From positions 433,349-497,348 of the forward strand of contig JAAEQR010000195.1 of NCBI GenBank assembly GCA_024231215.1: DNA of 64,000 nt, read 5' to 3'. Position 1 is the first letter of the stretch; each line of letters starts with the position of its first letter. The position numbers were made by a program, and so were the translations under genes. Below the pieces are notes generated by a model, which ran no database searches, had not been told where the DNA came from, and saw only the letters and a list, made by a program, of their open reading frames with translations. Shown here piece by piece: positions 641-42,241 of this stretch. Source of the stretch: PVC group bacterium (lineage in GTDB: Bacteria > Omnitrophota > Gorgyraeia > B26-G9).

Positions 641-1447
641 TTAATACTGAATCAAACTTCCTTGTTTGCGGGCTTTTTTTAATGCGTATTGGAAAGAGCC
701 AAAGCTAAGCGGAATAAGAATTATAGAAAATATGAGTAGAGCCCCCCATTCGTTACTTAGCTGTGCTAAGGAATAGTTTTGGTATACGGCCAGCTCCATA
801 GCACGGATAGCATAGGTGATTGGTAGAAGCTTTGCTAACATTTGCAGAAACGGCGGCATTACAGTTATCGGGAAGAATACTCCACCAAGCAGTCCTTCCA
901 GATTATTTATAATCCAGGCAACTGGGTTGCCTCGTTTGAAGACAATAATAAAACTCGCTGATAGTATACCTAAACTACTAAAGCAGATGATTGTGAGCAG
1001 GAGAATAACCCCGGCAGATAGTAGATTAGCATTAGTAAAATCTATATGAAATAGAAATGCTCCCAAACAAATATATATGCAGGCGTTAAAAGTAGCAAAT
1101 ATAAGGTTCCATAGTGCCATGCTTGCTAAAATTATTCCAATCCGGGTGGGGGTTAAAAGCAGAGATTCTAATGTTCCCATTGTTTGTTCATCTCTGATGC
1201 GTTCGGTAAAAGATCCGATGCCTACCCCGATATAACTAAAGAAAGCCATGCTCAAAAGTACATAAGAAAAATAATTTACTCCGAATTCTTTTAAATGTTC
1301 AGTAATTTCACTGTTGAACATTTTGTCGATAAAAAAGTAAACGAGCAAGAAAACAAATACCCCAAAAATATTAAGGATAAATGAGAGTTTGTAGCTTGTC
1401 TCGATCAGAAGATCTTTTTTTAATAAGGCAAATATTTTTCTAAACAT
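641..1447 (-). CDS. ABC-2 type transporter permease
   Basis: Hydrophobic multi-TM protein immediately downstream of an ABC ATPase on the same strand. The likely start is ATG at 1447 (MFRKIFALLKKD…), overlapping the ATPase stop as ATGTTTAG. The ORF-track start at 1570 would overlap the ATPase by 130 nt. Confidence 0.6.
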   Translation of the reverse strand: MFRKIFALLKKDLLIETSYKLSFILNIFGVFVFLLVYFFIDKMFNSEITEHLKEFGVNYFSYVLLSMAFFSYIGVGIGSFTERIRDEQTMGTLESLLLTPTRIGIILASMALWNLIFATFNACIYICLGAFLFHIDFTNANLLSAGVILLLTIICFSSLGILSASFIIVFKRGNPVAWIINNLEGLLGGVFFPITVMPPFLQMLAKLLPITYAIRAMELAVYQNYSLAQLSNEWGALLIFSIILIPLSFGSFQYALKKARKQGSLIQY

Positions 1448-2228
1448 TTTTTGTAACCTTTTGGTAAATATCGGATAATGACGCATCTTGTAAATTGGTT
1501 TTTTCGCGTAACTGTGACAATGTCCCGCATTCTTGTATCTGCCCATTGTCGAGGATGATAAAAATATCACATAAAGTTTCTGCTTCCGGGATATTGTGAG
1601 TAGCCAAAAGAATGGTTTTCCCTGTATTGCTGAGTTCTTTTATGTGTTGTTTAAGCGATTGCACAGACTGGTAATCTAAACTTTTCATAGGTTCATCAAG
1701 CAGAAGTATTTCCGGATTATGCAGTAGTGCACGGATAAGCGCGAATTTTCGTTTCATGCCCGCAGAGTAAGTATCGAATCGTTTGTCCTGGTAATTTATT
1801 TTAAACATAGAAAATAGTTCATCAATCCGTTTTTTTGTTCGTTGTTTATCTAATCCATAAAGTGTGCTGAAAAATTCTAAATTTTGTTTTCCGGTAAGCC
1901 TCCAGTAAAAACTACGTTCTTCATTAGAAGCAAGACCGAGTAGTGATTTTATTTCGCGGTCATGTGTGCCGGCTGAATAGTTTTTTATCTTGATCCTACC
2001 AACATCCGGCAGAATTAAGGTGGAGATTGTTTTAAGCAGGGTGGTTTTGCCGGCACCGTTTGCGCCTAATAATCCGGTGATTTTCCCTGGTTCAAGAGAA
2101 AAGGAGACATCTTTAAGAGCGGTAACCGCGGATTTTTGTTTATGCTTAATAATGTCGCCGAAAGATACGGCTGGGTAGAATAGTTTAGTGATCGTTTCTA
2201 CGGTTAATATTGAATTATTCATATTCAT
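1440..2228 (-). CDS. ABC transporter ATP-binding protein
   Basis: Walker A GANGAGKTT, ABC signature-like YSAGMKRK, Walker B ILLLDEP and H-loop LATHN are all present. Confidence 0.85.
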   Translation of the reverse strand: MNMNNSILTVETITKLFYPAVSFGDIIKHKQKSAVTALKDVSFSLEPGKITGLLGANGAGKTTLLKTISTLILPDVGRIKIKNYSAGTHDREIKSLLGLASNEERSFYWRLTGKQNLEFFSTLYGLDKQRTKKRIDELFSMFKINYQDKRFDTYSAGMKRKFALIRALLHNPEILLLDEPMKSLDYQSVQSLKQHIKELSNTGKTILLATHNIPEAETLCDIFIILDNGQIQECGTLSQLREKTNLQDASLSDIYQKVTKNV

Positions 2229-2565
2229 AAGCCTATCAAATCAAATAGATATAGTCAAGGTTCATCTTAATATTGATGACAAAAATTAGTGCAACATTTC
2301 GTTACACCACTTTTTTATGGCAATTTTACTTAACATTATTAATTTAAAGATGTTAGGATGTTTTTAGTTTAGGAATGTAACGAAATAATGCATATTAATA
2401 TATATAAAGGAAATATAGTAAGGAATTAAATATGAAAGCATAATTAAAATAAGTAATTGTTAAATAAGTAGTTATGTAAATATATTTAAATTTTCTTCTT
2501 TTTATAGAATTGGTACTGAAAATGCTCTTAATGAAGTTGAGAGATTCTATAGAAAGGGAATTGAT

Positions 2566-3282
2566 TTGAGAAAAAAAGTAATTATCATATTATTGTTACT
2601 GTTGCTGGTTAATACTGGTACGGGGTTTGCACAGAGCGCGGGTGAATCTTCTCTTTTTAGCATTGAATTTATTGGGCAATTTGTTGGGGCCACATATACT
2701 TCGGTAATGATTCACGAGGCAGGTCATTATGATGAAGCTAATATAATGGGGGTTACTCCTACGATACATCTTGGATTTATGAAGCAAAAGTCAGGAGATG
2801 GCAGTTCTCATGTATCCTTGGGAGAAACTCGTTATGAAAGATATCCTCAAGATGCTAAAAAGAAAAGCCGGTTAGCTTTAGCCGGGATAGAGTCATCGCA
2901 CAAGATATATGAATCGCTTAATAATCAAATAATAAACGGGCAAGCCAATAGTCGCTTTGATTCGATGGTTGCGTTGTTTTGTAAGACTGATTTTCCCCGC
3001 TATGCATTTATTCATAGCCTTACTGAGAACCCCGGACAGGCTAATGATCTTGAATGTTATATTACAAATTCCGGTGCAGATAAAGAGTTTATTTATACAG
3101 CAGCTTTTTTAGATGTTGTTTTTAATTTGCCGGATATAGAATTTCATATAAAAAATGTTTTAGGCATGAATTCTCAAATGCCAAAATTAAGAGAAATTTG
3201 TGGTTTTAAAACTCAACCGCGTGTATTTGTCGAGAGATATGCGGGTATAGCTATTGGATTTGATTTAAGTAAGAAATGGTGA
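2566..3282 (+). CDS. secreted hypothetical protein with HExxH motif (putative Zn-metallopeptidase-like)
   Basis: TTG start. N-terminal signal peptide MRKKVIIILLLLLLVNTGTGFA|QS. HEAGH (HExxH) motif at residues ~50-54. C-terminal aromatic residue (…GFDLSKKW). No further family assignment possible. Confidence 0.4.
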   Translation: MRKKVIIILLLLLLVNTGTGFAQSAGESSLFSIEFIGQFVGATYTSVMIHEAGHYDEANIMGVTPTIHLGFMKQKSGDGSSHVSLGETRYERYPQDAKKKSRLALAGIESSHKIYESLNNQIINGQANSRFDSMVALFCKTDFPRYAFIHSLTENPGQANDLECYITNSGADKEFIYTAAFLDVVFNLPDIEFHIKNVLGMNSQMPKLREICGFKTQPRVFVERYAGIAIGFDLSKKW

Positions 3283-3585
3283 TCTGCACATTTTGCAACA
3301 GCGCATGTAAATCCTACCTTATTTTTTCCTTGTCAGTCTTTTTATACTTGTGATACACTTTATAGGTACAGCGAGGTGAAATTGCCGCACTAAAATTGAA
3401 GATGATACGAATACTACTTTGGTAACTCTTCAGGAATTTAAAGCAATGAGTATTGGCCGGGAAACGAGAATGATTGAACTAAAAAGAGAAGTCAATGAAT
3501 TGGCCAAGGAATTGGGGCATCTGGAACCGTATGATATATCTTTCGCGGAGTAACTTTAATTTTAAAACAGGAGGTATAAAGTAAT

Positions 3586-4986
3586 ATGAAGAAGAACAAG
3601 AAACAGTTTTTTATGTTTATTAGTAGTATTATTATTTTAAGCTTTATTATTATTGCCTCGTTTTGTGTTGCTCAACCTATAGTCGGGGAACAGTCGGAAG
3701 TGGCCGGAGAGTTTTTTGAAATGCCTGTTTCAGCCAGCAATTATTACTTTGCTAAGAGAGTGATCCAGACTTTTGGCGCTAAGTGGAGAGGTAATCCTAA
3801 AATTCCGGAAGAGCTGGAAGATCTGGTGTGGCAGGAATTATTATTTTCTTATGAGGCATTTAAAAGAGGAATTGAGGTAACCGAAGAAGAAATAGATGAA
3901 GAAATCGAAAAAACAATCAAGGCGCAAAAAGTTGAATTTAACTGGAGGACTGATAAAGATGAGTTTCAAAAATGGGTTGAAGAAACATTAAAAGTTCCGG
4001 TTGAGATGTTCAGGCATCAAATGGAACATTTAATAAAAATAGAAATACTACGCACAGAAATAATTGATAGTATAGAGCCGGAGGTTACAGAGGAAGAAAG
4101 CTATCAGAAATTTCTTAATGAATATAATACTTTGTTAGTGGAGCTGGTTCAGTTTGACGATATGGAGAAAGCAAAAGATTTTTATGAGCAGTCAGTTAAG
4201 CCTCTTGCAAAAACAGATTGGGAAAAATTAGTTTGGGACGAAAAAGTTCTTTCTTATGAAGCAACTAAACGAGGGATAGAGGTGCTGGATGAAGAAGTTG
4301 AAGCAGCTATTGAGAAAATAATGGTCTGGGATGAAAAACGTGTTCAGTGGAAAACAGATTCGGAAGCTTTTAAAACATGGATAATGGAAAGAACTGGAGA
4401 GACGGAAGATGATTTTCGAAAACATATCAAGTTGTTTGTTAAGATAGAAAAATTATTGAGAGCAATTAAAGCCGAAGAAGAACCGGCAATTAGTGATAAT
4501 GAGTATAAAGCAATGATTGATAAACATGGAACTATTAAAGAAGCTTATGCAAAATTCATTGCAGAGTATGAAATACCGCTAGGGGATGTACTTCATTTTG
4601 GTTCTTTAGAGCAGGCGATAGCTTATTATGAGAAACTGGGGAGAACTCCAGGTTTTTGGGAAGATAAAAAGAGAGAAGATCCTAAGTCGTTTAAGCGTCC
4701 TGGATTTGTAGCTTTAGATTTTCTGGTTAATATGTGGGGATTTCAGGTAGAAGATGCTTATAAAATGCTCGAGTGGGAATTAAATGCTTTTTATCCTCCG
4801 GCGCCTATTTATAAGGGATTTGGAGTGTTTAAAATTTTAAGAGTTCGCAGGGCAGACCCAGCGCAATATAAAGATAGAGAGGAATATTATCTTGATAGAG
4901 TTTCGAGAATTAAAAAACATGAAGGATTCAAGGACTGGGTGAAAACATTTACAGAAAGTGCTAAAATAAAGCGTTTTATCCCATAA
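3586..4986 (+). CDS. secreted protein with internally duplicated SurA-N/PpiC-chaperone-like segments
   Basis: Strong RBS (caggaggt) 8 nt upstream. Signal peptide/TM (FMFISSIIILSFIIIASFCVA). Two paralogous segments (VWQELLFSYEAFKRGIEVTEEEIDEEIEK…NWRTDKDEFQKW and VWDEKVLSYEATKRGIEVLDEEVEAAIEK…QWKTDSEAFKTW). No parvulin PPIase motif seen. The functional call is tentative. Confidence 0.4.
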   Translation: MKKNKKQFFMFISSIIILSFIIIASFCVAQPIVGEQSEVAGEFFEMPVSASNYYFAKRVIQTFGAKWRGNPKIPEELEDLVWQELLFSYEAFKRGIEVTEEEIDEEIEKTIKAQKVEFNWRTDKDEFQKWVEETLKVPVEMFRHQMEHLIKIEILRTEIIDSIEPEVTEEESYQKFLNEYNTLLVELVQFDDMEKAKDFYEQSVKPLAKTDWEKLVWDEKVLSYEATKRGIEVLDEEVEAAIEKIMVWDEKRVQWKTDSEAFKTWIMERTGETEDDFRKHIKLFVKIEKLLRAIKAEEEPAISDNEYKAMIDKHGTIKEAYAKFIAEYEIPLGDVLHFGSLEQAIAYYEKLGRTPGFWEDKKREDPKSFKRPGFVALDFLVNMWGFQVEDAYKMLEWELNAFYPPAPIYKGFGVFKILRVRRADPAQYKDREEYYLDRVSRIKKHEGFKDWVKTFTESAKIKRFIP

Positions 4987-4989
4987 AAT

Positions 4990-5490
4990 ATGGACAATGT
5001 TATTCTTAAGACAAAGATTGATGTTTACCAGGATCAATTAAAGAAAAATAAGAAGGTGCGTATTAAAGTTACCGGTAATTCAATGCTGCCTTTTTTAAAG
5101 AACGGGGAAGTGATTGTTGTTGAGCCTGTAACCGTAAAGAATCTTTTCCCCGGGGATGTTGCTCTGACTTATATCCAGGGGAGCGTGTTTTGTCATCGTG
5201 TTTTTAAAAATAACGGCAGAGTATTTCAGACCAAAGGTGATGCCTTAACCTTGCTTGATCCTCCGGCGACAGAAGAGAATTTAATCGGGAAAGCTACAGC
5301 ACGTGTAGTAGGGCTTAGGAATATGAAGCTTGCCAGGATCACAGGATTTTTGATCTCACGTATGAGTATAATTGCGGCATATGTATATATCCCTTTGCGA
5401 TTCATCAAAAGAATCTTTAAAAAAGTAATTATTGGGGAAGTAATACGGGATGAAAATACGCACCCAAAGCAGGGGCAGCGAGATAAATAA
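4990..5490 (+). CDS. S24/S26-family (LexA/signal-peptidase-like) serine peptidase
   Basis: GNSMLP motif (the Ser nucleophile motif of S24/S26 peptidases) with no N-terminal HTH. Starts 4 nt after the upstream gene's stop. Confidence 0.55.
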   Translation: MDNVILKTKIDVYQDQLKKNKKVRIKVTGNSMLPFLKNGEVIVVEPVTVKNLFPGDVALTYIQGSVFCHRVFKNNGRVFQTKGDALTLLDPPATEENLIGKATARVVGLRNMKLARITGFLISRMSIIAAYVYIPLRFIKRIFKKVIIGEVIRDENTHPKQGQRDK

Positions 5491-6700
5491 TTTTATTAGA
5501 GCACTTATTATAAAACCTTCCGAGTTTTCGTCTGGTTGTGAACATGATTTTTTAAATAATATTGATACTTCGACGTCGCTCAGTATTAACCCTGAGCAGA
5601 CTCCGGACGATAATCTGGGGAAAGTCGAATGGGTTGATTGGCAACTGTTTTTGGAGAGAGTTTTTACTGAAGGGGTAGCAGGGCTAATTTTTTTCAATTC
5701 TGTGCAGTTTAAGTTTTCGCAAATATTTCCTGAGAATGTTTATGAGAAGTTAAGGCATGATTATGAGAATACCACTGGTCGGAATATGGTTATTCTTAAT
5801 TGTCTTGAAGAAGTAATAGCGCGTTTTAAAGAAGAGTCTATTGCATTGCTTTTAATTCGCGGGATTGATTTTCTGAAAAATTTGTATGAAACTGCCGGAA
5901 TACGGGCAATGATTGATGTGGATATAGTGATTCATCGGGAAGATTTAACTCGGGTTGCTGATGTTTTTTCAGGGCTGGGGTATGAGCATCCGGAAGGATA
6001 TCCATATATTTTTTGTCAGGATGGTATTTTCTTCGATTTACATATTGATCGGGCTGGATTTTGGAGGATTGATTCCTGGCCGCAAGCGATAGGCATTAGT
6101 GAGCCGGATATTTGGAATCAGGCTTGTCCATTAGAAGATGAAGCCCCAAATATTAGGACTTTATCTGTTTACGATTCAATCCTGGTTTCCTGCGCGCATT
6201 TACAGGATCATTCCTATAGCCGGTTGATTTGGTTTGTGGATATTTGGTGTCTGATTAAAAAAGAAGCAAATGAGTTCGACTGGCAATATCTATTACAACG
6301 TGCGAAGCAATATAATTTGGAAAAACCGCTTTGTTTTACATTGAGATATCTATCTAAGTACGAATTTATAGATTTGCCGGATAATGTGAATTCTTTTTTA
6401 GATAAGTTGCCTTTGAATTTTATTGAATCAAGGTCGTTGCGTATGCTTTTAGCAGATAATCGACAGGCGGTTTCAGGGGATCTATTGTATTTATTTTCAT
6501 TTAAAACTCTTGCTGAGCGGTTGCGTTTTATCCGGCAGACAATATTTATTGAAAAAGATAATTTTCCTTTATTTGAACAAAAAATAACAGTTTGGGATTA
6601 CTTGCGTAGATTTTTTCGAATAGTGATGTATAGCGTTCGTAAGATGTTTGCGATACTTAACCCGGGAAATACGACCGAGCGTAACGACACAGATGTGTGA
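5450..6700 (+). CDS. nucleotidyltransferase-family protein (PF14907-like), RiPP-cassette member
   Basis: Pol-beta-like NTase core resemblance (…LLLIRGIDFLKNLYETAGIRAMIDVDIVIHREDL…). Sits directly upstream of an HprK-related kinase and a PqqD protein, the context in which this NTase family is typically found. Overlaps the upstream ORF by 41 nt; the true start may be internal. Confidence 0.45.
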   Translation: MKIRTQSRGSEINNFIRALIIKPSEFSSGCEHDFLNNIDTSTSLSINPEQTPDDNLGKVEWVDWQLFLERVFTEGVAGLIFFNSVQFKFSQIFPENVYEKLRHDYENTTGRNMVILNCLEEVIARFKEESIALLLIRGIDFLKNLYETAGIRAMIDVDIVIHREDLTRVADVFSGLGYEHPEGYPYIFCQDGIFFDLHIDRAGFWRIDSWPQAIGISEPDIWNQACPLEDEAPNIRTLSVYDSILVSCAHLQDHSYSRLIWFVDIWCLIKKEANEFDWQYLLQRAKQYNLEKPLCFTLRYLSKYEFIDLPDNVNSFLDKLPLNFIESRSLRMLLADNRQAVSGDLLYLFSFKTLAERLRFIRQTIFIEKDNFPLFEQKITVWDYLRRFFRIVMYSVRKMFAILNPGNTTERNDTDV

Positions 6701-6732
6701 TAATTTGTGCCCGCAGTAGATAATGGTATGAA

Positions 6733-7533
6733 ATGTTCGGGTGGAGACTTAAAATGAATGATATTTATTTGGATATATGTGGACATAAACTGTCTGTTTG
6801 CAGTGAAGATGAAGGTTTTATTGCAGAATTAAAAGACAAATATCGCAATTTTATAAGTAAACTCGAAGGTGATATAAATATTCTTGTAGCTCATAAACCA
6901 TTTAAAGATGAAGACAGCGATATTGTTGTGCAGAAAGAAGCCAAAGGGTATGTTATTACCGGTAATGAGATCGAGGCAAGGGTGGATGATTCCCTGGGGA
7001 AAATTAAACTCAAGATTCCCGCTAATGCAGGCACATTTGATTGTTTTTTGCGTATATTTTATTCTTTACTTTTGTTGGAAGATGATGCGTTTTTGATTCA
7101 TGCTGCGGGTTTGGCAAAAGCAGGCAGGGGAGTACTTTTTACCGGGCCTTCAGAAAGCGGAAAAACAACTACTGTTTCCAGAGCGGAAGGGCTTGATATT
7201 TTAAGTGATGAGCTTGTAGCAATAAAAGAAGATGACGGACAATTCTATCTTTTTTCAACGCCGTTTCATGGAGAATACAGAGGTGATGTTGCCTGTAAAT
7301 GTGTTCCTTTACAGAAAATATATTTTTTAACTAAAAAAGTAGTGGAGCAGAAACCTTTGAAGATATTGGAAGTATTTGTTGGCTTATTGGAAAATACATT
7401 TTTCTTTTATCGGAATAAGCAAGCTGATAAGAAAATTCTGGAGTTATGCCATAAGCTTTCAAAAAAAGTAGATGCATATCACATGAATATTTTAGCAGAG
7501 AGAAGTGTAGGGAGGTTGTTTAATGAAGTTTGA
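6733..7533 (+). CDS. HprK-related kinase (HPr kinase/phosphorylase C-terminal-domain-like)
   Basis: P-loop region LIHAAGLAKAGRGVLFTGPSESGKTTT followed by …DELVAI…, similar to the HPr kinase C-domain. Gene context with PqqD and rSAM/SPASM matches the HprK-related kinase families. Confidence 0.6.
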   Translation: MFGWRLKMNDIYLDICGHKLSVCSEDEGFIAELKDKYRNFISKLEGDINILVAHKPFKDEDSDIVVQKEAKGYVITGNEIEARVDDSLGKIKLKIPANAGTFDCFLRIFYSLLLLEDDAFLIHAAGLAKAGRGVLFTGPSESGKTTTVSRAEGLDILSDELVAIKEDDGQFYLFSTPFHGEYRGDVACKCVPLQKIYFLTKKVVEQKPLKILEVFVGLLENTFFFYRNKQADKKILELCHKLSKKVDAYHMNILAERSVGRLFNEV

Positions 7534-7804
7534 AAATATGTTGATTGGGCGCAGTGATCAGGCGGCTTGGCAGGAAGTTGAAGAGAATGTAGTTGTGGTT
7601 AATTCTAATACACGCAAAGTTCATATTCTTTCCGGTATTGGCGGGAGGATTTGGCAGATTTTAGAACATCCTAGGCAGCAAACAGATATTGTAAATGTAA
7701 TTATGCAAGAGTATGATGTTGCACGTGAGCAGGCGGAAAATGATGTGGATTCTTTTTTGCAGGAACTTGCTCAAAAGGAGATAATAAAGATAAAAGATGA
7801 ATGA
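7523..7804 (+). CDS. PqqD-family peptide chaperone (RiPP recognition element)
   Basis: 93 aa with a PqqD-like pattern (…VVVVNSNTRKVHILSGIGGRIWQILEH…IVNVIMQEYDV…DVDSFLQELAQKEII). Overlaps both neighbouring genes, which suggests translational coupling. Confidence 0.7.
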   Translation: MKFENMLIGRSDQAAWQEVEENVVVVNSNTRKVHILSGIGGRIWQILEHPRQQTDIVNVIMQEYDVAREQAENDVDSFLQELAQKEIIKIKDE

Positions 7805-8798
7805 TATCTGGAAACATGTGCGCAATACAATAGAAAATAAATATATTCCAATCTCAATGATACTGGAACTTACACGGCGGTGTAATTTGAATTGCTGTCA
7901 TTGTTATAATATTAAAAGCAACTCAGAGCTAAGTTTTCCTCAGATAAAAGAGATTAGCCGGCAGTTAAGAGATGCCGGATGTTTATTTTTGTTTCTCACC
8001 GGCGGGGAAGTTTTTTGTATGCCCGATTTTCTGGAGATCATTACTTATTTGCGGCGCGCTGGTTTTGATTTAAAGATTTTCACAAACGGAACATTGATAA
8101 CATCGGATCTTGTTTATAAGCTAGGGGATTTAGGTATTAGCGAAATAGGTATAAGTATTCAGGGAGCCGAACCAAAAACACATGATCGTATTTCCGGAGT
8201 TCCCGGAGCTTTTGAAAAATCAATAACTGCAATTAAAATGTTGAAGGAACGCGGGGTGCCGGTAAATATAAAATGCACCTTAATGAAAGAGAACTTTGCT
8301 GAATACAAGGACATTATAAAATTGGCAGAAAATTTAGGAGTTACTTATGTAATAGACCCGGTAGTTTCACCTCGTGATGATGGGTCCAGGGATGTGTTAT
8401 CCTGTCGTTTGGATGAAACTCAATTAAAGCAATTTTATAGCGAACAATTCTCTCGATTAGAAGTAACTAAAGTCGAGGAAAATTCTATTTGTGAAGCAGG
8501 GCGTACTTTTGGGAGCATATCTGCAGTCGGAGACGTATATCCATGTATTCAGATTCCCTTAAAAGTCGGTAATGTTTTTGAAAGAGAGTTTCTGGATATT
8601 TGGAGTGATGCCCAAATGCTTAAGAAGATGCGCAGCTTTAAATCATCTGAAATTAAGGCTTGTGTGGATTGTGATATGGTATCTTCCTGTTCAATATGTC
8701 CTGGGCTTGCTTACTTGGAAGACGGGGATCTTTTTGGGCCGGCTTCTATAGCTTGTTTAAATGCGCGTATTCAAAAAGAGGTGGAGAATGAAAAATAA
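7797..8798 (+). CDS. radical SAM enzyme with C-terminal SPASM/twitch domain
   Basis: CxxxCxxC near the N-terminus (RRCNLNCCHCYN). Additional Cys cluster at the C-terminus (C…CIQIP…CVDCDMVSSCSICPG). Confidence 0.8.
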   Translation: MNDIWKHVRNTIENKYIPISMILELTRRCNLNCCHCYNIKSNSELSFPQIKEISRQLRDAGCLFLFLTGGEVFCMPDFLEIITYLRRAGFDLKIFTNGTLITSDLVYKLGDLGISEIGISIQGAEPKTHDRISGVPGAFEKSITAIKMLKERGVPVNIKCTLMKENFAEYKDIIKLAENLGVTYVIDPVVSPRDDGSRDVLSCRLDETQLKQFYSEQFSRLEVTKVEENSICEAGRTFGSISAVGDVYPCIQIPLKVGNVFEREFLDIWSDAQMLKKMRSFKSSEIKACVDCDMVSSCSICPGLAYLEDGDLFGPASIACLNARIQKEVENEK

Positions 8799-10731
8799 AC
8801 TGGCAAATAAACTCCTGATACAGATGATTATTGTTGTAATGATCATTTCGGCAGTATTTTATTTTATTATCACTATGCAGGCTAAAGAATCGGAAAAACG
8901 GATATTTGATAAAGCTAAGCTTTTTTCAGCAATTCTGGGAGTTCATATGGACAGGATTGTTGGCGATAATTTGCTTGTTTATCAGAGTTTGCAGACTGTG
9001 GTTTCCGGATTGGCCAAGGCCGATGAGAAAATAGAGAAGATCAGAATTATTGCACCGGAGTCTATTGTATTGGCAGACAGTAATGAGGAGAGAATCTGGC
9101 AGACTGTGGTTTCCGGATATCGGGATGTAATAGAAACGGTGATAGAAACTGGGCAGGCAAAATCTCTTGTTAAAAAAGTATTGGGAAGAGAATTGGTGGT
9201 TCGTTTTATGCCTCTTTTTTCTGAAAAGGAAAAAGAGAATTTGATTGGGGTGATGCAGCTTAATGTGAAATTTTCTTCGCAGCAAGCTCAGGGCATGGCT
9301 TATTTAAGGAGTAATAAAGCGGCTTATTTTAAAGAGAATGCCGCAAGGTTGTCAAAAGAAGTGTCTGAAAATCTGCAAAATGTGCTTGACGATGTGGAAA
9401 GGAATTTTCATTACCTTGATGATTTGGTGGCTCGTATGATCAAGGATGAAGAAATCCAGGATATTAGATTTTTTTCTAAAGATCTGCGATTGCTGGGCTC
9501 GGGTAGTTCCGGAAGGCGTGCGTTACTTTATAGTGATAATGATACGGAATTTTATGAAAGAGTAATAAAAAACGGGAGTATTTTAAAAAGAAATATAGCA
9601 AAATCAGGGGTTGAAGTAGTAAGTCCTCTTTATGTACCGGGTGATACAGAAAAACAGGTGGGCGGAGCCGTGGGTATTACTCTTTCGCTGAAGCGTATTA
9701 ATGAATTAGTATTTTCCCGGATAAAGAATATTTTAATAATGAGTTTGCTTATTATTTGTGCGTTTTGTTTGCTGATCGGGGTGTTTTTCAAGCGGACAGT
9801 AATTGCTCCTTTAAATGGTCTTATGCAGATGGCGCAGCGTGTGGGTAAAGGAGATTTCTCTAAGAAAATACAGGTGGTGTCAAATGATGAGATTGGAAGT
9901 TTGGCCGAAGCTTTTAATCAAATGTCGGATGAATTAAAAAAATCAAAAGAACAGATAGAAGATTTTAATCTAGGTTTGCAGGAAAAAGTAGATAAGGCAA
10001 CCAAAGAATTAGAAGAAAAACAAGCTCAGCTTATTGAATCAGAACGCATGGCTTCGTTAGGAGTTCTTTCCAGCGGGATTGCACATGAGATAAACAACCC
10101 TTTGGGTGTAATTTTAGGGCATGCGCAGATGCTTTTAAAGGAATTAAAGACAAGGGGTGATTTAGAAGATGCGCAGGAAGCGGAAAAGTTGCTTAATACT
10201 ATAGAAGAATATGCAAGAAGATGTACTCATATAGTTAGAAGCCTGTTACAGTTTGCAAAAAAAAGAGAGATGCAGTTTAGTGAAACAGATGTAAGTTCAA
10301 CGGTGAGTAACGCCTTAATGTTTGCTGAAGGCCGCTTGAATAAAAAAGAAATCAAAGTGGGAAAACATTTAGCTTCGGATTTGCCTCCTGTTTTAGCTGA
10401 CGCGATACATCTTGAACAGGTTTTTATTAATATTATTTTTAATGCTGAGCAGAGTATGAATCAGGGTAGCAAGTTGGATGTATCTATTGAGCTTGAAAAA
10501 GGAGAAGAGATTGTAGTTGCTTTTCAGGATGAGGGAGAGGGGGTCTCGGAAGAAAATATTAAAAAGATATTCGATCCATTTTTCTCTACGCGAGAGCCGG
10601 GAGAAGGTGTGGGGTTAGGGTTATCGATTTCTTATGGGATAATTAAAGCGCATGGCGGAGATATTAATATCGAGAGTGAAGTTGGTAAAGGAACCAGGGT
10701 AAGTGTGAGATTGCCGGTTAAAAAGGGGTAA
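8788..10731 (+). CDS. sensor histidine kinase (2 TM, extracytoplasmic sensor, HAMP, HisKA, HATPase_c)
   Basis: H-box HEINNPLGVILGHAQML. HATPase G-boxes (DEGEGV…, GVGLGLSISYGIIKAHGG). TM helices at ~residues 15-40 and ~310-335 flank a ~270-aa sensor region. Likely start is ATG 8788 overlapping the upstream stop; the ORF track gives 8761. Confidence 0.85.
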   Translation: MKNKLANKLLIQMIIVVMIISAVFYFIITMQAKESEKRIFDKAKLFSAILGVHMDRIVGDNLLVYQSLQTVVSGLAKADEKIEKIRIIAPESIVLADSNEERIWQTVVSGYRDVIETVIETGQAKSLVKKVLGRELVVRFMPLFSEKEKENLIGVMQLNVKFSSQQAQGMAYLRSNKAAYFKENAARLSKEVSENLQNVLDDVERNFHYLDDLVARMIKDEEIQDIRFFSKDLRLLGSGSSGRRALLYSDNDTEFYERVIKNGSILKRNIAKSGVEVVSPLYVPGDTEKQVGGAVGITLSLKRINELVFSRIKNILIMSLLIICAFCLLIGVFFKRTVIAPLNGLMQMAQRVGKGDFSKKIQVVSNDEIGSLAEAFNQMSDELKKSKEQIEDFNLGLQEKVDKATKELEEKQAQLIESERMASLGVLSSGIAHEINNPLGVILGHAQMLLKELKTRGDLEDAQEAEKLLNTIEEYARRCTHIVRSLLQFAKKREMQFSETDVSSTVSNALMFAEGRLNKKEIKVGKHLASDLPPVLADAIHLEQVFINIIFNAEQSMNQGSKLDVSIELEKGEEIVVAFQDEGEGVSEENIKKIFDPFFSTREPGEGVGLGLSISYGIIKAHGGDINIESEVGKGTRVSVRLPVKKG

Positions 10732-10734
10732 AAG

Positions 10735-12129
10735 GTGAATAAAGAGTATATTCTAGTAGTAGATGATGAGCGTGGGATGCGTGAATACCTCAAAAAACTT
10801 TTAACAGATAACGGATATGCTGTAGTTGTAGCCAATAACGGGATGGAAGCTTTGACGCAGATAGAAAAAAAGATTCCAGTTTTAGCCATAATAGATTTCA
10901 AGATGCCCGGTATGGACGGATTGGAACTTTTGGCTAAAATAAAAGAGGTGCATCAACAGATAACCGTGATTATGATGACAGCTTACGGCACAATGGAAAA
11001 TGCGATAAAGGCGATGAAGCTGGGAGCCTATGATTATTTAAATAAACCATTTGAGCTTGATGAGATATCACTTGTTATTGATAAGGCTTTTGAAAAGAAA
11101 CGCTTGGAAGAGGAGAACATAGAGCTTCGCAGAGAGCTTAAAAAAGCTTATACATTTGAGGATATTGTTTCCAGTAATGACCAGATGCGTAATATTTTTG
11201 ATACGGTTCAAAAAATAGCGGATACTAAAAGTACTATTTTGATCCAAGGAGAAACAGGTACAGGTAAAGAGCTTATTGCCCGGGCTATACATAATCTGAG
11301 CCAGCGTAAAAACAATTCATTTATTCCGGTAGATTGCAGTGCGCTTACCACAAGTCTTTTGGAAAGTGAGCTTTTTGGTCATGTTAAAGGTGCGTTTACC
11401 GGAGCGAGTACGGATAAAAAAGGTCTTTTTGAGGCGGCGCATGGCGGAACTATATTTCTAGATGAAATAGGACATATTTCTTTGGAGATACAGTCAAAGC
11501 TGCTGCGTGTTTTGCAGGACGGAGAGATAAAAAGGGTGGGAGAGGCTTTAGCACGCAAGGTGGATATTCGTCTTATTGCTGCAAGTAATGAAAATTTAGA
11601 ACGCGCGGTAAAAGAAGGAAGGTTTCGCCAGGATCTTTATTATCGTTTAAATGTGGTGCCGTTGTCTTTGCCGGCTTTACGGGAAAGGACAGAAGATATT
11701 CCGATTTTAATCGAGCATTTTATTAAAAAATATAATCATATAGAAAGTAAAAAATTAGAGAATGTATCCCCGGAAGTTTTAAAGATATTGATGGACTATC
11801 AATGGCCGGGCAATGTGCGGGAGTTGGAAAATCTAATACACCGGGCAGTAGTTATGGAGGTGGGGCCGGTGATTTTACCTAGTGATTTGCCGGCAGGAAT
11901 AAGAGAGCCGCTGATTACTGCGGAGAGGCGAGATATCCTTTCCCGGACGAATAATTTTAGGAAAGCTAAGCGCCAGGCAATGGAAGCTTTTGAGCGGCGT
12001 TTCCTGGCTGAGTGTTTAATTCGAAATAAAGGAAACGTAAGTAAAACTGCAAAAGAGATGGGATTGGACCGGAGAAATTTACAGAGAAAATGTAAGTATT
12101 ATAAGATTAATCCGGGAGAATTTAAATAA
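10735..12129 (+). CDS. sigma-54-dependent response regulator (NtrC-family enhancer-binding protein)
   Basis: Receiver domain (…IIDFKMPGMDG…). AAA+ sigma-54 activator domain (GETGTGKE Walker A, ESELFGH, GAFTGA motif, FLDEIG Walker B). C-terminal Fis-type HTH. Confidence 0.9.
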   Translation: MNKEYILVVDDERGMREYLKKLLTDNGYAVVVANNGMEALTQIEKKIPVLAIIDFKMPGMDGLELLAKIKEVHQQITVIMMTAYGTMENAIKAMKLGAYDYLNKPFELDEISLVIDKAFEKKRLEEENIELRRELKKAYTFEDIVSSNDQMRNIFDTVQKIADTKSTILIQGETGTGKELIARAIHNLSQRKNNSFIPVDCSALTTSLLESELFGHVKGAFTGASTDKKGLFEAAHGGTIFLDEIGHISLEIQSKLLRVLQDGEIKRVGEALARKVDIRLIAASNENLERAVKEGRFRQDLYYRLNVVPLSLPALRERTEDIPILIEHFIKKYNHIESKKLENVSPEVLKILMDYQWPGNVRELENLIHRAVVMEVGPVILPSDLPAGIREPLITAERRDILSRTNNFRKAKRQAMEAFERRFLAECLIRNKGNVSKTAKEMGLDRRNLQRKCKYYKINPGEFK

Positions 12130-12354: not shown

Positions 12355-15300
12355 TTGCAGTTAGAAGGTTGGCGAAAATTGAAGAGTATTAAACATCTGA
12401 TCATATTTTTTCTTATAAACACGATTATTTTATCAAACATCCCGCCAGTATTTGCTGAAAAAGCTTATAGCGTTTGTCTTTCCCCCGTTGTAACAATTAA
12501 CACTCCTGCGTTGAAATACAATTTTTCTCAGCTTGAGCTTGGCCGCTTACTAGAAACAACACAGTTAAATATTGAAGTAAATGGATTTATCAGAGATTTG
12601 TTTGGTAAAAATAGTAAGAATTTTGTGAATGCTACATTCAAAGGATTTAAAGTTGATTTGATCTCAGGGAGGGGATATCCTGTCGCAGATGAAATTGTTC
12701 CATTTAGATTGGATGATCATGGATATGTTCATCTGACCGAAAGCATGGCTCAACTGATTCAGGATCATCCGGATAGAGAAGAAATTTTATTTGAAATCGG
12801 AGTGCATTATACTCTTAAACTTAATTATAAAGTACTTGCGCAACATCATCCAAATAGCAAACATTATACACAACACAAGTTCAACCTTTTGTTAATTAGA
12901 GCTTTGCCAGATAATAGCGAAAGGGCGATTATTGGTAACTACCTTCCCATTATTTCTAATGGAGCTATTCAGCCAATTGATAGTTTGTTAGGTATTAGGG
13001 ATTATGTCGGTAATGATGACGTAGTATCCCATCATCTTGCATTATTATTCGAACGATATGCTCGCAGGAGACGTATTGGTTATCGAAAACCTGGAAGTTA
13101 TGAAGTGGTAAAAGGCAAAGAAACTTATATGGATTACTTTTATAATACTAAGCATGGTTTAAGTTTTCTGAGTGTTCCCGGGAAACTATCCGCGTTTTTA
13201 ATGTCTTTACAGATTAACGAAAATAATGTATCTGTCGGCCGCTATGATATATCAATAAATGATGTTAATAAAAATTTAAGATCTAATCTAGCCGGTGAAA
13301 ACATGCTTTTTGCTGCGGGGTCACTTTGCATGCACAATAATATGGAACGTTATAGAATAGAAGCGACGGTTCCCTTACTTACGAATGCGTTAGGCGATTT
13401 TAGAAATGATCCTCTGGTTGCCGGATTTTTAGCCTCAGTTACCGGAGATTTTGATATGTATTTTGTTAGGGATTTAATCGAAAAATTTAAAGGAGCCGAC
13501 CTTATTCAAATTGTCTATCAACTTCAAAGGCTTAGAAGAAAGGTAAGAAATGATTCTGATAAAGATTGGGATTTAAGTGAAAGTAAGCAATTTCATAGAA
13601 CTGTTGAACATGTTATGCGGACTTATTCGAAAAAAAATGTTTCCATGATTTTAGATAGTTTTGAAAAACTGGGAGATATATACAACTTGGTGAATGAATC
13701 ATATCGTCCGATGCATAAAGTAATGCCGATTCTCATCTTTATGACAGAGCTGATTTCACGAAGTGAAGATCCTTTAAGAGAAGTTATTGATCCATTACAT
13801 AGTTTTATTTCTACAGTCTCTCCGGCGCAGATTCTTGCTTGTTTGCCTCTTGTTGAAGGCACAGGAACCTTTGGTCTGGCACGTTTGCAAAGCTTAATAC
13901 AGAGATTCGGAAAATTTAATATTAATATCGCGGCTTTAGATATTGTCCCATGGATGAAATTAGCATATGTCGAGTATATTCTGAATCATAGCTCGGATCC
14001 AGAGCATGACTTAAAGCATCTAAATGTTTATCTAAGACATCAAATAGTTCAGAGGGATAGAGAAAACCTTATTCTTGATAATATGAAAAAACTCTATGAA
14101 ATTTATGACTTGCGGCGCGCTCATCATGCTTTATTTAATAATTTGGATCTCCAGTTTACGCCGGGCGAGATTATTGCTGTGGCAAATAAAAAACTAACTG
14201 CGGGGATGGAAAGAGACGGTTCTTATGTGCCATCCATACGGAATATTCGTCATGACCTAGATCAGAGAGGGAATTATAATTGGAATTCTGAGCGGGGAGA
14301 TGATATTGAATTATTGATCTATGGGCTTAACCATTTAAATGCTTCTGACGGGACGCTTATTGCTTTTCAAAAATACGAAAAGATTTTAATTCAATCTTTA
14401 ATTGCTCTAAAATTTGTTGTTGCTCAGGAAGAGTTATTGTTAAAACTTAGAGATCAATTGTTCCAAGTTATGGTTCGTTTTCTTTGCTTGAATAACGAAA
14501 CGGTAGATCCGCTTATCTTGCTCGGATATTTAAATACGATAAGCGAGCATATGAATTACGCTACCGCGGAATCTTTAATTAAGTTTTTAGATAAAATAGT
14601 TTCAAATGGGGATGTTGCTGGTCTGGATAGATTGTTGGAAGAATTAGCTTACTCTGCCGACTGTATGCCTGCCAGAGAAGCAAAGGCAATTATTCGTCAG
14701 TATATTAGTGAGGTTGAGGAGGGTGGAGTGCAGCAAACACTTACCAGATTGATTGCATTACGTGTTGAGTATGAACAGAAGAGATTCCCTGAGGAGGAGC
14801 AATCAATATCAAACATGGTGGCTCAGATTAAAGGCTTGCCTGCTACAGACCAGAAAAGACTAGAGGATGAAATACAAACAGTACTAGGTCACGAAAAAAC
14901 AATAATAAAGATGAGCGATTCTGAGATTAAAAAAAGAGTCAAAGCACTTAAGATTCAAGTGCAAAGAAAAGAGGTGCTTTTTGAGGATGTTAAGCTTTTA
15001 TATTTGGCCTATATCAGAGAGATTGCTAAAAGAAAATACGGGATGAGAGCTTACAATATCCAATTAGCCGCGGTCCTTCTTTTCTTTTATGAGGGAGATT
15101 TTAATAAAAGGGGGTTGGTTCAAGAAATTAAGACAGGTGAGGGCAAATCGCTAATTTTTGCCTTAACAAATAGTTTAGCTGCTTTGACGGGCAAACCAGT
15201 GGATGTTTTTACGGTAAATACATATCTTGCCGCTCGTGATGCCGAACAATTTAAAGTTTTGTATAATTTTTTAGGATTAACTGTTGCCTATTTAAAAGAC

Positions 15301-17369: not shown

Positions 17370-17385
17370 TGGCATGATATTTGCT
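17370..17385 (+). promoter_or_regulatory. sigma-54 (RpoN) -24/-12 promoter of the giant gene
   Basis: TGGCATGATATTTGCT matches the consensus TGGCACG-N4-TTGCW with correct GG/GC spacing. An RBS (aaggagt) and the ATG at 17430 follow ~45 nt downstream. Confidence 0.65.
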
Positions 17386-37974: not shown

Positions 37975-39108
37975 ATGAAACGATTATTTGCATTGACCTT
38001 GGTGTGTCTATTTTTATTGTCCAGCATATGTTTTGCCGCTGATTGGCCGATGTTTCGAAAAGATGTAGAGCGCTCAGGTAATAGCGGTGAATATTTACAG
38101 TCGCCGCTTTCTGTAAAATGGGAATTTAAAGCTAGTGGTAAAATAGTTTCTTCTCCTACTGTGTTTGACGGAAAAGTTTATGTTGGCTCAAGAGATGGTA
38201 ATGTATATGCGCTAAACGCTCAGACCGGTAAGAGTATTTGGAGTTTTGAAGCCGGAGATTGGGTGGACTCTTCTTGTACGGTAACTAATGACGGAGTGTA
38301 TTTTAGCTGCCGGAACGGGCTTTTTTATTGTCTGGATTCCGAGACAGGAGAAGTTAAATGGCAATATGAGACCATGGGGACGGATTCATCTTCCCCGCTG
38401 GTTGTGGACGGTAAGGTTTTTTGCGGGTCTGGGTTTGAAAATAAATTTATTTATGCTTTGGATGCCAAACTGGGTATATTGCTTTGGCAGACAGATACTC
38501 AGCAGATGGTTTATTCTTCGCCTGCATATTCCCAGGGCAAGGTTTATGTTGGATCTAATGATGGGTATGTTTATTGTCTGGATGAAAATTCCGGGACAGT
38601 GAAGTGGAAATATAATACAGGATCTGAACTATATTATTCTACTCCGGCAATTGGCAATGATAAGTTATATATTGCGCCGGGAAAATTTAATTGGAAAGTC
38701 TATGCGTTAAATGTTAATTCCGGAAGCGTTGCTTGGGAGTATGAAGTGGAAGATAAAAAAGAAACCCCAACTTATGTATCCAGTGTGGCGGTGGCGCAAA
38801 ATTCCATATTCTTTGTTTCAGGATATGAGAAGCAATATATATATTGTATTGATGTTAATACCGGAACGCTTAAATGGAAAGGACTCTTAGGCGCGGCATT
38901 ACGTTATGGTTTTGCGTCGTCACCTTGTATTACCGAAGATATGATTTATGTGTGTTCATCAAAAGGCACGCTTAAGGCGTTTGATCCAGATAGTGGAGAG
39001 TTGCAATGGGAAGAGATGATAGCCAAAGGAGTGCTTTCTTCTCCGGCAATAGTGAATCAAGTATTGTACATTTCTGCTTTTGACGGTACTGTGTATGCTT
39101 TAGAATAG
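37975..39108 (+). CDS. secreted PQQ-repeat beta-propeller protein (BamB/PQQ-enzyme-repeat-like)
   Basis: Signal peptide MKRLFALTLVCLFLLSSICFA|AD. Repeated …GKVYVGSxDGxVYALxxxTGxxxWxxx… blades (about 7-8). Confidence 0.8.
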   Translation: MKRLFALTLVCLFLLSSICFAADWPMFRKDVERSGNSGEYLQSPLSVKWEFKASGKIVSSPTVFDGKVYVGSRDGNVYALNAQTGKSIWSFEAGDWVDSSCTVTNDGVYFSCRNGLFYCLDSETGEVKWQYETMGTDSSSPLVVDGKVFCGSGFENKFIYALDAKLGILLWQTDTQQMVYSSPAYSQGKVYVGSNDGYVYCLDENSGTVKWKYNTGSELYYSTPAIGNDKLYIAPGKFNWKVYALNVNSGSVAWEYEVEDKKETPTYVSSVAVAQNSIFFVSGYEKQYIYCIDVNTGTLKWKGLLGAALRYGFASSPCITEDMIYVCSSKGTLKAFDPDSGELQWEEMIAKGVLSSPAIVNQVLYISAFDGTVYALE

Positions 39109-39380
39109 GCCGCTAAGATTACGTTTGGAGTTTACCGTGGCGAGTTTTTTCAGGAGAATTTCTTATTTCCCCTTATACACGCTGAACTAAGAGATATATT
39201 ATTGGCATTAGCGCATTTTGCGCAGGCTAAAGCATTAACCTCATAAACATCCCGGGATTCTATGCGGGGCGGATCATATCGTTTTTTTTGATTTCTTTTC
39301 TTGTTTTCCATTTTTCACCTCCTAATTTTTAGTAACGGACAGATACAGAGGTCTGTCCCTACATAATTAAAAAAATATTT

Positions 39381-41147: not shown

Positions 41148-41710
41148 TTTGTCCTCCTGACTCCCCTTCTTAATTTTTGCATAGTATTTAACGGATAATC
41201 GTCCTTGTTTTCGCCGGTATAGGCTGGGCTTATTGAAATAGTTTTCGGCTCATTATTATTAGCTGGCAATGGAGTACTGCTGAGACCGGCTTGTTTGAGT
41301 TTTAAATCAAATAGCTGGTTGTTGCGTTCCAATATAATTTTATTTTTCTGAATATCTTTAACTATATAGTTTTCGATGCTATCGTTTATCCCGACATAAA
41401 ATCCTTTATCCTGATTTTTCTTTTCGACGATGGCTTTGTACCCGTTTTTCAGATTTACTACTCCGGTCAGGATAAGATCTCTGGCTTTGGCAGATCCATC
41501 GTTACCCGGGAAGGCGCTTTGTATACCTGAACTCTGAACTTCGGCATTCAAATCTTTTGTGGGACGAAAAAAATTTCTTTTTTCAATAATTTCATAATAA
41601 GATAGAGGAGGGATGTTTTCTTGCGCGGTACAGTTTTGTAGTCCCCAGCACATAGCCCATAGACAAAAAATTGTTAATATAATAAAGATTTTTGATTCTT
41701 GTGTTTTCAT
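41144..41710 (-). CDS. PilP/GspC-like secretin-associated periplasmic protein (tentative)
   Basis: Small protein with N-terminal signal/lipoprotein-like segment (MKTQESKIFIILTIFCLWAMCWGLQNC), encoded between the PilO-like gene and the secretin. Likely start at 41710 overlapping the upstream stop as ATGA. Assigned by position only. Confidence 0.35.
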   Translation of the reverse strand: MKTQESKIFIILTIFCLWAMCWGLQNCTAQENIPPLSYYEIIEKRNFFRPTKDLNAEVQSSGIQSAFPGNDGSAKARDLILTGVVNLKNGYKAIVEKKNQDKGFYVGINDSIENYIVKDIQKNKIILERNNQLFDLKLKQAGLSSTPLPANNNEPKTISISPAYTGENKDDYPLNTMQKLRRGVRRTK

Positions 41711-42240: not shown

Positions 42241-42241
42241 G

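Follow-up and report, generated by a model that had tools for sequence, protein, structure and literature searches.

A five-gene radical SAM cassette of an Omnitrophota-type bacterium and a candidate 53-residue precursor peptide encoded in the same contig

Five tightly packed genes at positions 4990-8798 of a 64,000-nt stretch of contig JAAEQR010000195.1 (hereafter the window) probably encode the maturation machinery of a peptide that is made on ribosomes and then modified post-translationally (a RiPP), whose 53-aa precursor is encoded at 39150-39311 on the minus strand. The metagenome-assembled genome that supplied the window is labelled 'PVC group bacterium', and the nearest homologues of the radical S-adenosylmethionine (SAM) enzyme of the cassette (52-64% identity) come from Omnitrophota. 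A first-pass annotation, made from the letters alone, had described a RiPP-like cassette with no precursor in the region and had offered as possible substrates a small peptide, the secreted protein encoded upstream, or the giant protein encoded downstream or its signal region. The precursor family member that we describe here, 30 kb downstream of the cassette in the same window, corrects the first statement and makes the proposed protein substrates unlikely.

The five open reading frames (ORFs) of the cassette all lie on the plus strand, where adjacent genes overlap or are separated by gaps of at most 33 nt, and the same tight packing spans 3586, the start of a SurA-like gene, to 12129, the end of a sigma-54 activator gene. 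Domains were assigned by Pfam and NCBIfam profile searches with scores compared to curated cut-offs, and these searches agreed with the five packed genes and with the S24, nucleotidyltransferase (NTase), PqqD and radical SAM/SPASM families that had been read from the sequence. None of the outcomes named in the first-pass annotation as refuting its reading was seen. None of the five proteins reached an NCBIfam equivalog cut-off. The first gene (4990-5490, 166 aa) encodes an S24/S26-type Ser/His peptidase and is the predicted leader peptidase. It matched Peptidase_S24 (PF00717, E 3.4e-8), its top NCBIfam match was the archaeal-type signal peptidase I (TIGR02228, 47.2 bits versus a cut-off of 51.85), and its GNSM, CHRV and TK(G/A)DA motifs (TKGDA in the window) are kept in orthologues. 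A hydrophobic or amphipathic segment is present at its C-terminus and none at its N-terminus; without an N-terminal membrane anchor it is unlikely to be an ordinary secretory signal peptidase, and its catalytic domain is therefore predicted to be cytoplasmic. The second gene (5450-6700, 416 aa) encodes a PF14907 NTase (NTP_transf_5, E 2.5e-41) with a DxD motif, IDVDIV, read from the sequence; by analogy it is the predicted decorator of a phosphorylated C-terminal Ser.

The third protein (6733-7533, 266 aa) is a P-loop protein of the ScmC family (PF27840 'ScmC') with a Walker A P-loop, conserved His, Lys and Asp residues, and the fold of the HprK C-domain and PEPCK in its predicted structure; on the same analogy it is a predicted peptide Ser kinase. 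The fourth (7523-7804, 93 aa) is a PqqD-family RiPP recognition element (RRE; PF05402, E 1.5e-16, 60.9 bits versus a cut-off of 23.4), for which the top NCBIfam match was the lasso PqqD chaperone NF033536 (56.6 bits versus a cut-off of 80). The last gene (7797-8798, 333 aa) encodes a radical SAM enzyme with a SPASM domain (Radical_SAM, E 5.4e-26; SPASM PF13186, E 1.9e-9), the predicted peptide cross-linking maturase. Its CX3CX2C motif and seven C-terminal Cys residues indicate a full SPASM domain and no twitch domain, so that only the SPASM half of the earlier SPASM/twitch reading stands. The catalytic motifs of the cassette proteins are conserved.

The candidate precursor was identified with a hidden Markov model (HMM) built from six peptides of other loci, none from the window, and searched against six-frame segments of the window and of the loci compared. 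Its sole match in the window was at 39153-39314 on the minus strand with an E value of 3e-9 (381,130 residues of six-frame translation searched), at a gene annotated as hypothetical protein GY853_12990, eight genes past the ScmC-like gene GY853_12950 in the source record. The predicted precursor peptide, MENKKRNQKKRYDPPRIESRDVYEVNALACAKCANANNISLSSACIRGNKKFS, holds all the family invariants (Y12, P15, A27, C30, C45 and the C-terminal S53), and a ribosome-binding site, AGGAGG, lies 7 nt 5' of its ATG. The family counts 255 members at E<=10 in a set of 5.8 billion proteins, none of them named, and in an NCBIfam scan of six precursor peptides no curated model covered them.

Motif statistics were taken from 186 distinct sequences that had been chosen for Y-x-x-P, which is thus present in 186/186 by construction; as an independent check, it was present in 120/120 database peptides. 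The first Cys lies exactly 18 residues past the Tyr in 183 of 185 peptides. Before it stand Glu at -6 (181), Ala at -3 (183/185), Val, Leu or Ile at -2 and Ala, Thr or Ser at -1 (159), and after it Ala, Gly or Ser at +1 and Lys at +2 (180/185). Exactly two Cys residues follow the Y..P in 112 of 120 peptides, the last Cys is placed 7-8 residues ahead of the C-terminus in 168 of 185, and the C-terminal residue is Ser in 182 of 186. Long variants of about 90-110 aa also occur (L029 407-808; L032 1234-1611 and 1758-2033, tandem copies), in which an extension rich in Gly, Ser, Tyr and Trp comes after the normal leader and first Cys, and then a late Cys and the usual Ser at the C-terminus.

This peptide family and the cassette are linked by their co-occurrence in other bacteria. 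A metagenome scan queried with the peptide alone gave 80 loci, many on short or incomplete contigs, in which neighbours were called by local HMM searches. PqqD genes were found in 64 of these loci, radical SAM/SPASM genes in 56, ScmC genes in 51, S24 peptidase genes in 39 and PF14907 NTase genes in 26, and the complete order S24-ScmC-PqqD-peptide-radical SAM-NTase was present in 16. At least 3.5 kb flanked the peptide on each side in 11 loci, of which six were complete and ten held at least part of the set. HMMs built solely from genes flanking the peptide family in the metagenomes were then scored on the window proteins. All five were recognized, with 362.9 bits for the radical SAM enzyme (40 peptide-adjacent sequences), 155.6 for the ScmC protein, 82.5 for the NTase, 78.6 for the PqqD protein and 72.8 for the peptidase (27 homologues), which strengthens the proposal of a RiPP-type maturation cassette. 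Family membership, co-occurrence and synteny are direct observations.

Shared-motif small ORFs also accompany distant ScmC-PqqD-radical SAM cassettes from Elusimicrobiota, Acidobacteriota, Chloroflexota and unassigned metagenome contigs (L002, L007, L008 with three copies, L010 and L012). Examples are MKRKRKKYQKPEVVSEKVFETEALACAKCIGSFPIFQAACRLLLKKS from L010 and MKKSYEKPAIIHTETIEARAIRCTKADDASCPGGPTTS, one of the three copies in L008. S24-type peptidases are encoded beside the peptide genes in L008 and L010, and homologues of the window peptidase directly adjoin the peptide gene in L047, L061 and L010. A bridge to the arrangement in the window is provided by L061, where a single contig carries a sigma-54 activator, a kinase, an HD_5 gene, ScmC, PqqD, radical SAM, the precursor and S24. 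The search for a short ORF conserved beside the cassette, as suggested by the first-pass annotation, was successful in these distant cassettes and unsuccessful within 10 kb in Omnitrophota-type loci. A genome-collection scan with the ScmC alignment, whose back-translated pattern is a generic P-loop, gave at least three loci. In an NCBIfam scan of the complete soil-type cassette L076, no enzyme reached its cut-off.

Some loci differ in gene content. L039 (9041-10147), L069 (5122-6384) and L070 have the peptide, PqqD and S24 with no ScmC or radical SAM gene within several kb, and may be reduced or split versions of the pathway. In L039, what looked like a fusion of S24 and PqqD was rejected after a reading-frame check, as it reflects overlapping stop-free frames in GC-rich DNA. 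In the low-GC cassettes L010 (7550-11999), L061 (6569-11362) and L093 (3684-4913), an HD_5 (HD-GYP-like) gene lies upstream, and in L010 and L061 an AAA_22 (ExeA/GspA-like) ATPase gene is located beside the radical SAM gene; these genes hint at a link of the cassette to cyclic-di-GMP signalling and type II secretion.

Within the window, the peptide gene comes directly after the gene for the secretin in a type II secretion/type IV pilus-like operon (39381-44831, minus strand) and is convergent with the giant gene (17430-37853, plus strand) and with the gene for a 377-aa BamB/PQQ-like beta-propeller protein that lies between the two (37975-39108, plus strand; PF13570, PF13360). A hairpin, GGGACAGA...TCTGTCC (39330-39356, minus strand), lies after the stop codon of the secretin gene and before the ribosome-binding site for the peptide. 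Its minimum free energy is -16.6 kcal/mol with a z-score of -2.1 versus shuffles. Having no T-tract, it is not a terminator of the canonical type, and it may serve in processing or attenuation. An Rfam scan of the window gave no match.

The position of the peptide gene is conserved. A phmmer search identified the peptide P0244 on contig L096 as an orthologue of the window peptide with 57-62% identity at the same syntenic position. The order in L096 is a type II secretion-like operon with its secretin, a PRMT-like methyltransferase gene, the peptide gene, a BamB-like gene of 377 aa and, at the edge, the 3' end of a giant gene, with identities to the window of 66% for the giant C-terminus, 72% for the secretin and 53% for the BamB-like protein. 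The 47 aligned codons of the two peptide genes comprise 14 identical codons, 15 with synonymous and 18 with non-synonymous differences. This pattern suggests purifying selection on the protein product of the window gene.

Several observations weigh against the assignment of this peptide to the cassette or against the functions that we predict for the enzymes. The window precursor lies 30 kb from the enzyme genes, on the opposite strand and across the giant gene, and the six other Omnitrophota-type loci that were compared (L003, L004, L005/L006, L093/L094 and L095, with 10-kb flanks, the giant genes being longer than the flanks) showed no peptide gene within 10 kb of the radical SAM gene. The L096 contig stops inside the giant gene, before the position expected for the cassette. 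A profile of the ScmC family gave no significant match to solved HPr kinases among PDB sequences, and the structural model of the ScmC protein is of moderate confidence (pLDDT 60.7). In addition, the NCBIfam models closest to the radical SAM enzyme are AhbD and NirJ2, both of the heme type and both scoring about a third of the respective cut-off, and the type of cross-link cannot be given by sequence.

In the window, we infer the pairing of enzymes and peptide from the family-wide co-occurrence and not from adjacency, which leaves room for the cassette to serve a different, unrecognised small peptide elsewhere in the genome, with the 53-aa ORF as an orphan that is either modified by other enzymes or non-functional. 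The distance between enzymes and peptide would fit this explanation, and orphan peptide loci do exist: L024 has no cassette gene within 5 kb of its peptide. Motif and HMM searches near the radical SAM gene of seven Omnitrophota-type loci found no precursor, and the conserved small ORFs in or beside the cassette (window, L003-L005) were rejected as candidates, since all lie inside large genes in another frame and none is intergenic. However, the window has a single gene of the peptide family and a single set of genes from the five cognate enzyme families, and the peptide is kept in synteny with codon differences that suggest purifying selection. Two further radical SAM/SPASM genes, at 50197-51354 (plus strand) and 56503-57687 (minus strand), were considered as alternative maturases and rejected on score and context: they scored only 87.6 and 55.3 bits, respectively, against the same 40-sequence HMM, reached no curated family, have no PqqD partner and lie among genes for a type II secretion pseudopilin, TPR proteins, glycosyltransferases, PMT_2 and CDP-alcohol phosphatidyltransferase. 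We therefore regard a separate substrate peptide as unlikely.

The alternative that the substrate is a protein, either the SurA-like protein, the secreted 238-aa protein or the giant protein or its signal region, is more improbable still. Protein-modifying radical SAM/SPASM enzymes are known, sulfatase maturases being an example, the SurA-like gene is co-operonic with the cassette, and the cassette is always 5' of a giant gene. Elsewhere, however, the same five enzyme families flank the small peptide without SurA-like genes. The giant proteins begin with ordinary signal peptides of poor conservation, which were rejected as leader candidates. A motif of the Y-x-x-P type is not conserved in the SurA-like proteins, among which the window copy alone has a match, FKRPGFV, at chance level, and the 238-aa protein is missing from the orthologous loci.

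With the 53-aa peptide as the substrate, a pathway can be proposed in which every enzymatic step is drawn by analogy to characterized systems. The PqqD protein would bind the leader through Y-x-x-P, so that the core is held at the fixed distance set by the 18 residues between the Tyr and the first Cys. Y-x-x-P has a role in lasso peptide leaders, and its presence together with a PqqD protein nearest to the lasso B1 chaperone suggests lasso-type leader recognition. The ScmC-family kinase of HprK fold would then phosphorylate the near-invariant C-terminal Ser, and the PF14907 NTase would add a hexose or a nucleotide to the phospho-Ser, comparable to PsmN in pseudomycoidin. Lasso precursors have a conserved C-terminal Ser, which the HprK-superfamily kinases PadeK and PsmK phosphorylate, and PsmN, of an uncharacterised nucleotidyltransferase family, is needed for the addition of one or two hexoses to the phospho-Ser (PMC6993621, PMC9266682, PMC12639078). 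From this precedent and the conserved Ser we infer a Ser kinase activity on the peptide C-terminus. The comparison with lasso kinase/NTase pairs made in the first-pass annotation was thus apt, as the Ser conserved in this family is the residue that lasso HprK-type kinases phosphorylate.

The radical SAM/SPASM enzyme would subsequently form one or more intramolecular cross-links at the conserved Cys residues, most probably thioethers, as the combination of conserved Cys and a SPASM enzyme suggests by analogy. Finally, the cytoplasmic S24/S26-type peptidase would cut the leader at A-x-[A/T/S] just before the first Cys and release a core some 24-26 residues long; with its small residues at -3 and -1, the site is of the classical signal-peptidase kind, which fits an enzyme of this type. 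The order of these steps is, like their chemistry, an extrapolation. The product would probably carry a phosphate and further decoration at the C-terminus together with cross-linking by the radical SAM enzyme, likely a new scaffold. In the Omnitrophota version, the enzyme genes are split from the precursor gene and joined in one operon with the SurA-like chaperone, the sensor kinase and the sigma-54 activator.

The chemistry of the radical SAM enzyme could also be read differently, with the enzyme and its partners making a small-molecule or tetrapyrrole-type cofactor by AhbD/NirJ-like chemistry. The top NCBIfam matches, heme b synthase AhbD with 169 bits and NirJ2 with 144 bits, point in that direction. 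These scores are, however, far under the 500-bit cut-offs, the PqqD recognition protein gene overlaps the radical SAM gene, no other heme or heme d1 pathway gene was present among the neighbours, and this radical SAM subfamily consistently adjoins the peptide. Cofactor synthesis is therefore the most remote of the explanations considered, and peptide maturation is the function that we retain for the cassette.

The possible first gene of the cassette operon (2566-3282, plus strand) encodes a secreted 238-aa protein with an HEAGH (HExxH) motif, which had no Pfam or NCBIfam match and no counterpart in the orthologous loci L003-L005 and L095. A weak sigma-54-type site, TGGTAC-N5-ATGCT (2511-2526, plus strand), lies 40 nt 5' of this ORF and is among just two intergenic matches in the window to a sigma-54 pattern scan; it is a possible start of the cassette operon, tentatively so, because it was not seen 5' of the SurA-like gene in orthologous loci. 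The SurA_N-like periplasmic chaperone-like protein (3586-4986, plus strand; 466 aa; PF13624, E 7e-7), with a signal peptide or anchor, is encoded directly 5' of the peptidase gene and occupies the same position with 49-61% identity in L003-L005. In L095 a 446-aa ORF without a Pfam match takes this position, and the SurA-like gene is absent from soil-type cassettes. In the 300-nt gap 5' of the SurA-like gene there is a 44-aa ORF, MVTLQEFKAMSIGRETRMIELKREVNELAKELGHLEPYDISFAE (3419-3553, plus strand), that is not conserved in orthologous loci, has no precursor motif and may be a gene remnant.

Downstream, the start of a sensor histidine kinase gene (8761-10731, plus strand) overlaps the end of the radical SAM gene, a position kept in L003-L006 and L095. 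The kinase has two transmembrane segments, a periplasmic Cache-like region and HAMP, HisKA and HATPase domains. It is followed by a gene for an NtrC/AtoC-type sigma-54-dependent response regulator (10735-12129, plus strand) whose sigma-54 interaction domain shows 60-73% identity to its counterparts in L003-L006 and L095, and a homologue of this activator is also found 5' of the precursor-containing cassette L061. The general Omnitrophota order is lipopolysaccharide-type glycosyltransferase, methyltransferase and aminotransferase genes, a divergent ABC-2 transporter, and then SurA-like, S24, NTase, ScmC, PqqD, radical SAM, kinase and sigma-54 activator genes. The divergent ABC-2 transporter pair adjoins the cassette operon at 641-2228 (minus strand) in the window and at about 3793-5698 in L003-L005, and a similar pair lies beside the PF14907 gene of an Elusimicrobiota locus (L012, 2927-4600); it could export the peptide or belong to the neighbouring lipopolysaccharide/glycan genes.

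The giant gene (17430-37853, plus strand) encodes a secreted protein of 6807 aa with a C-terminal PQQ-like beta-propeller, and a giant gene of 4,279 to 7,761 codons lies 3' of the cassette in all six Omnitrophota-type arrangements. A sigma-54 consensus, TGGCAT-N5-TTGCT (17370-17385, plus strand), is located 60 nt 5' of the giant gene and is the sole match in the window, where 0.11 was expected by chance from shuffles. The same consensus is found 61-220 nt 5' of the giant gene in three orthologous loci (L003, L004 and L005), and before the giant gene in four of six Omnitrophota-type arrangements overall. Control of the giant gene by the two-component pair, as had been suggested, is accordingly a well-founded guess, and the giant gene probably shares regulation with the cassette. 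Between the activator and the giant gene, the window carries a gene for a 1612-aa protein (12355-17193, plus strand) of which the C-terminal half is a divergent SecA motor (SecA_DEAD, E 1e-56, and P-loop_SecA; about 400 bits with SecA models, half their cut-offs) and the N-terminal ~830 residues hold no recognisable domain. In orthologous loci its place is taken by a Y1_Tnp-like or zinc-ribbon gene. In published work, SecA domains lie inside Omnitrophota giant proteins; in the window SecA is a separate gene. The cassette is not mentioned in two papers on Omnitrophota giant genes.

Sigma-54 sites of the form TGGCAY-N5-TTGCT occur once each in 12 of the 97 loci and always on the cassette strand, with about 1.25 expected in 730 kb as scaled from the window shuffle. 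Soil-type examples on the plus strand fall into two groups. In the first (L025 3112, L033 3885, L057 3773, L083 1879 and L092 4102), the site lies 180-370 nt 5' of a gene for a 1000-1335-aa secreted protein that precedes the cassette, and homologous secreted proteins of ~1,000-1,335 aa are encoded 5' of the cassette in soil loci. In the second (L062 3639, L076 12576 and L087 6276), it lies just 3' of the NTase gene, before DUF7948 and SBBP propeller genes.

Beside the cassette or peptide, secreted proteins of large size recur, many of them with beta-propellers of the PQQ-like or another kind, although the significance of this recurrence is not established. The propellers in these neighbours are of the PQQ_2/ACSF4/BamB-like or SBBP types. 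Giant and BamB-like propeller genes are present in the window (giant C-terminus at ~36500-37853; BamB-like at 37975-39108) and in L096 (10290-11423). In L097 a gap of 37 nt separates the peptide gene from a preceding gene whose terminal propeller (2-208) is 49% identical (tblastx) to the giant C-terminus of the window. L010 encodes a propeller protein of >2,768 aa (13243-), L025 a 1,335-aa protein with a C-terminal PQQ_2 propeller (3481-7488), and L076 carries DUF7948 and SBBP propeller genes (13299-14621). Type II secretion-like genes recur as well, with the peptide after the secretin gene in the window and L096 and the ExeA-like AAA_22 gene in L010 and L061.

Taken together with the regulatory genes, these neighbours suggest that the peptide most likely acts with, or controls, the giant protein and the type II secretion-like apparatus, and this is the least certain part of our account. 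We further put forward, as a tentative and rather doubtful extension, that the pathway defines a new RiPP class combining phospho-Ser decoration, a radical SAM cross-link and a signal-peptidase-like protease, with a product that partners large secreted beta-propeller proteins and in Omnitrophota serves as a signal for the kinase or as a ligand or cofactor of the propellers. As a signal, the mature peptide would be sensed by the co-operonic histidine kinase, switching on the sigma-54-dependent giant gene; as a ligand, it would be bound by the PQQ-like propellers that the giant and BamB-like proteins carry. In both cases, deployment of the giant-protein/type II secretion-like apparatus would be tied to a small modified peptide. 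Action as an exported effector is a further candidate role.

The assignment provides a concrete precursor, marked by a sharply defined motif, for three families that had no substrate, namely ScmC/PF27840, PF14907 outside lasso clusters and this radical SAM/SPASM subfamily, and makes an orphan cassette that had been defined by computation accessible to direct tests as a pathway. The pathway is widespread, with representatives in soil Acidobacteriota-type bacteria, Chloroflexota, Elusimicrobiota and Omnitrophota. In Omnitrophota, this is the first conserved regulatory and biosynthetic module found beside the giant surface-protein genes of these putative predatory nanobacteria, and it offers a handle on how those genes are controlled. 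In the literature, no description of the cassette or of the peptide was found, subscription-only papers being outside the coverage.

Comparison with known systems places the cassette outside each curated pathway while recovering features of several. Cassettes of this kind could have belonged to pyrroloquinoline quinone (PQQ) or mycofactocin biosynthesis, but the scores remained below the cut-offs (PqqE 108/381, PqqD 25.8/46 and MftC 120/265), and no homologues of PqqB/C or MftA/B/D-F were found among the neighbours. The same applies to the HPr-rel-A system (TIGR04352 kinase A, 24.8 versus 200; TIGR04353 PqqD_rel_X, 24.5 versus 35) and to the GeoRSP models of NCBIfam, whose cut-offs were not reached by the five proteins. 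The computationally defined SynChlorMet (SCM) system, of unknown function, likewise brings together an ScmC-family protein, a PqqD homologue and radical SAM/SPASM enzymes. However, the present cassette has one radical SAM gene instead of two, adds an S24 peptidase and a PF14907 NTase, and has an identified precursor family, and the SCM equivalog scores stayed well under their cut-offs (ScmC 18.1/125, ScmD 26.6/100, ScmE 120.7/400 and ScmF 96.4/400), which leaves the broader Pfam label PF27840 as the sole annotation shared with that system.

With the radical SAM/SPASM maturases that work with an RRE, as in sactipeptides, ranthipeptides, PQQ and mycofactocin, the cassette shares a full SPASM domain, a PqqD-type RRE and a short Cys-containing peptide, and differs from them by the additional kinase, NTase and signal-peptidase-like leader protease. 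The sequence features of the sactipeptide/ranthipeptide type are present (CX3CX2C, the seven-Cys SPASM and Cys in the core), while scores for the curated maturases were low (AlbA 93/850, StsB 90/625). More generally, the hallmarks of a RiPP system are found in the short precursor with conserved leader and core and in the PqqD/RRE protein, and precursor and enzymes cluster in 16 contiguous loci, with PqqD near the peptide in 64/80, compared to the 30 kb that separate them in the window. The peptidase resembles the SipW/archaeal-type signal peptidase I (S26B) and SodX, the cytoplasmic protease of NiSOD maturation, in its GxSMxP Ser, HRV His and TKGD box and in a predicted cleavage site with small -3/-1 residues (A-x-A type). 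It differs in having no N-terminal anchor and in its predicted substrate, which is a RiPP leader and not a Sec signal peptide.

The closest parallel is the kinase/NTase module of lasso peptides (paeninodin PadeK/PadeB1 and pseudomycoidin PsmK/PsmN), which also combines an HprK-superfamily kinase, an uncharacterised NTase and a PqqD-type RRE with a precursor that has a conserved C-terminal Ser (PMC6993621, PMC9266682, PMC5067487). A Y-x-x-P motif in the leader is a further common feature. A 2025 list of phosphorylated RiPPs is confined to microcin C, paeninodin, pseudomycoidin, phospeptin and a small number of further members. Unlike the lasso module, the cassette has neither an Asn-synthetase-like cyclase nor a B2 transglutaminase-type protease, and no such domains were found in the ORFs of 2566-12129 or in the related loci that were inspected; the cassette instead encodes a radical SAM/SPASM enzyme and an S24/S26 peptidase. 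Its peptide core carries conserved Cys in place of a ring-forming Asp or Glu, and its ScmC protein is far from the curated HprK-related models. These likenesses and differences together support the view of the cassette as an RRE-guided radical SAM RiPP pathway that combines a lasso-type kinase/NTase pair with a signal-peptidase-like leader protease.

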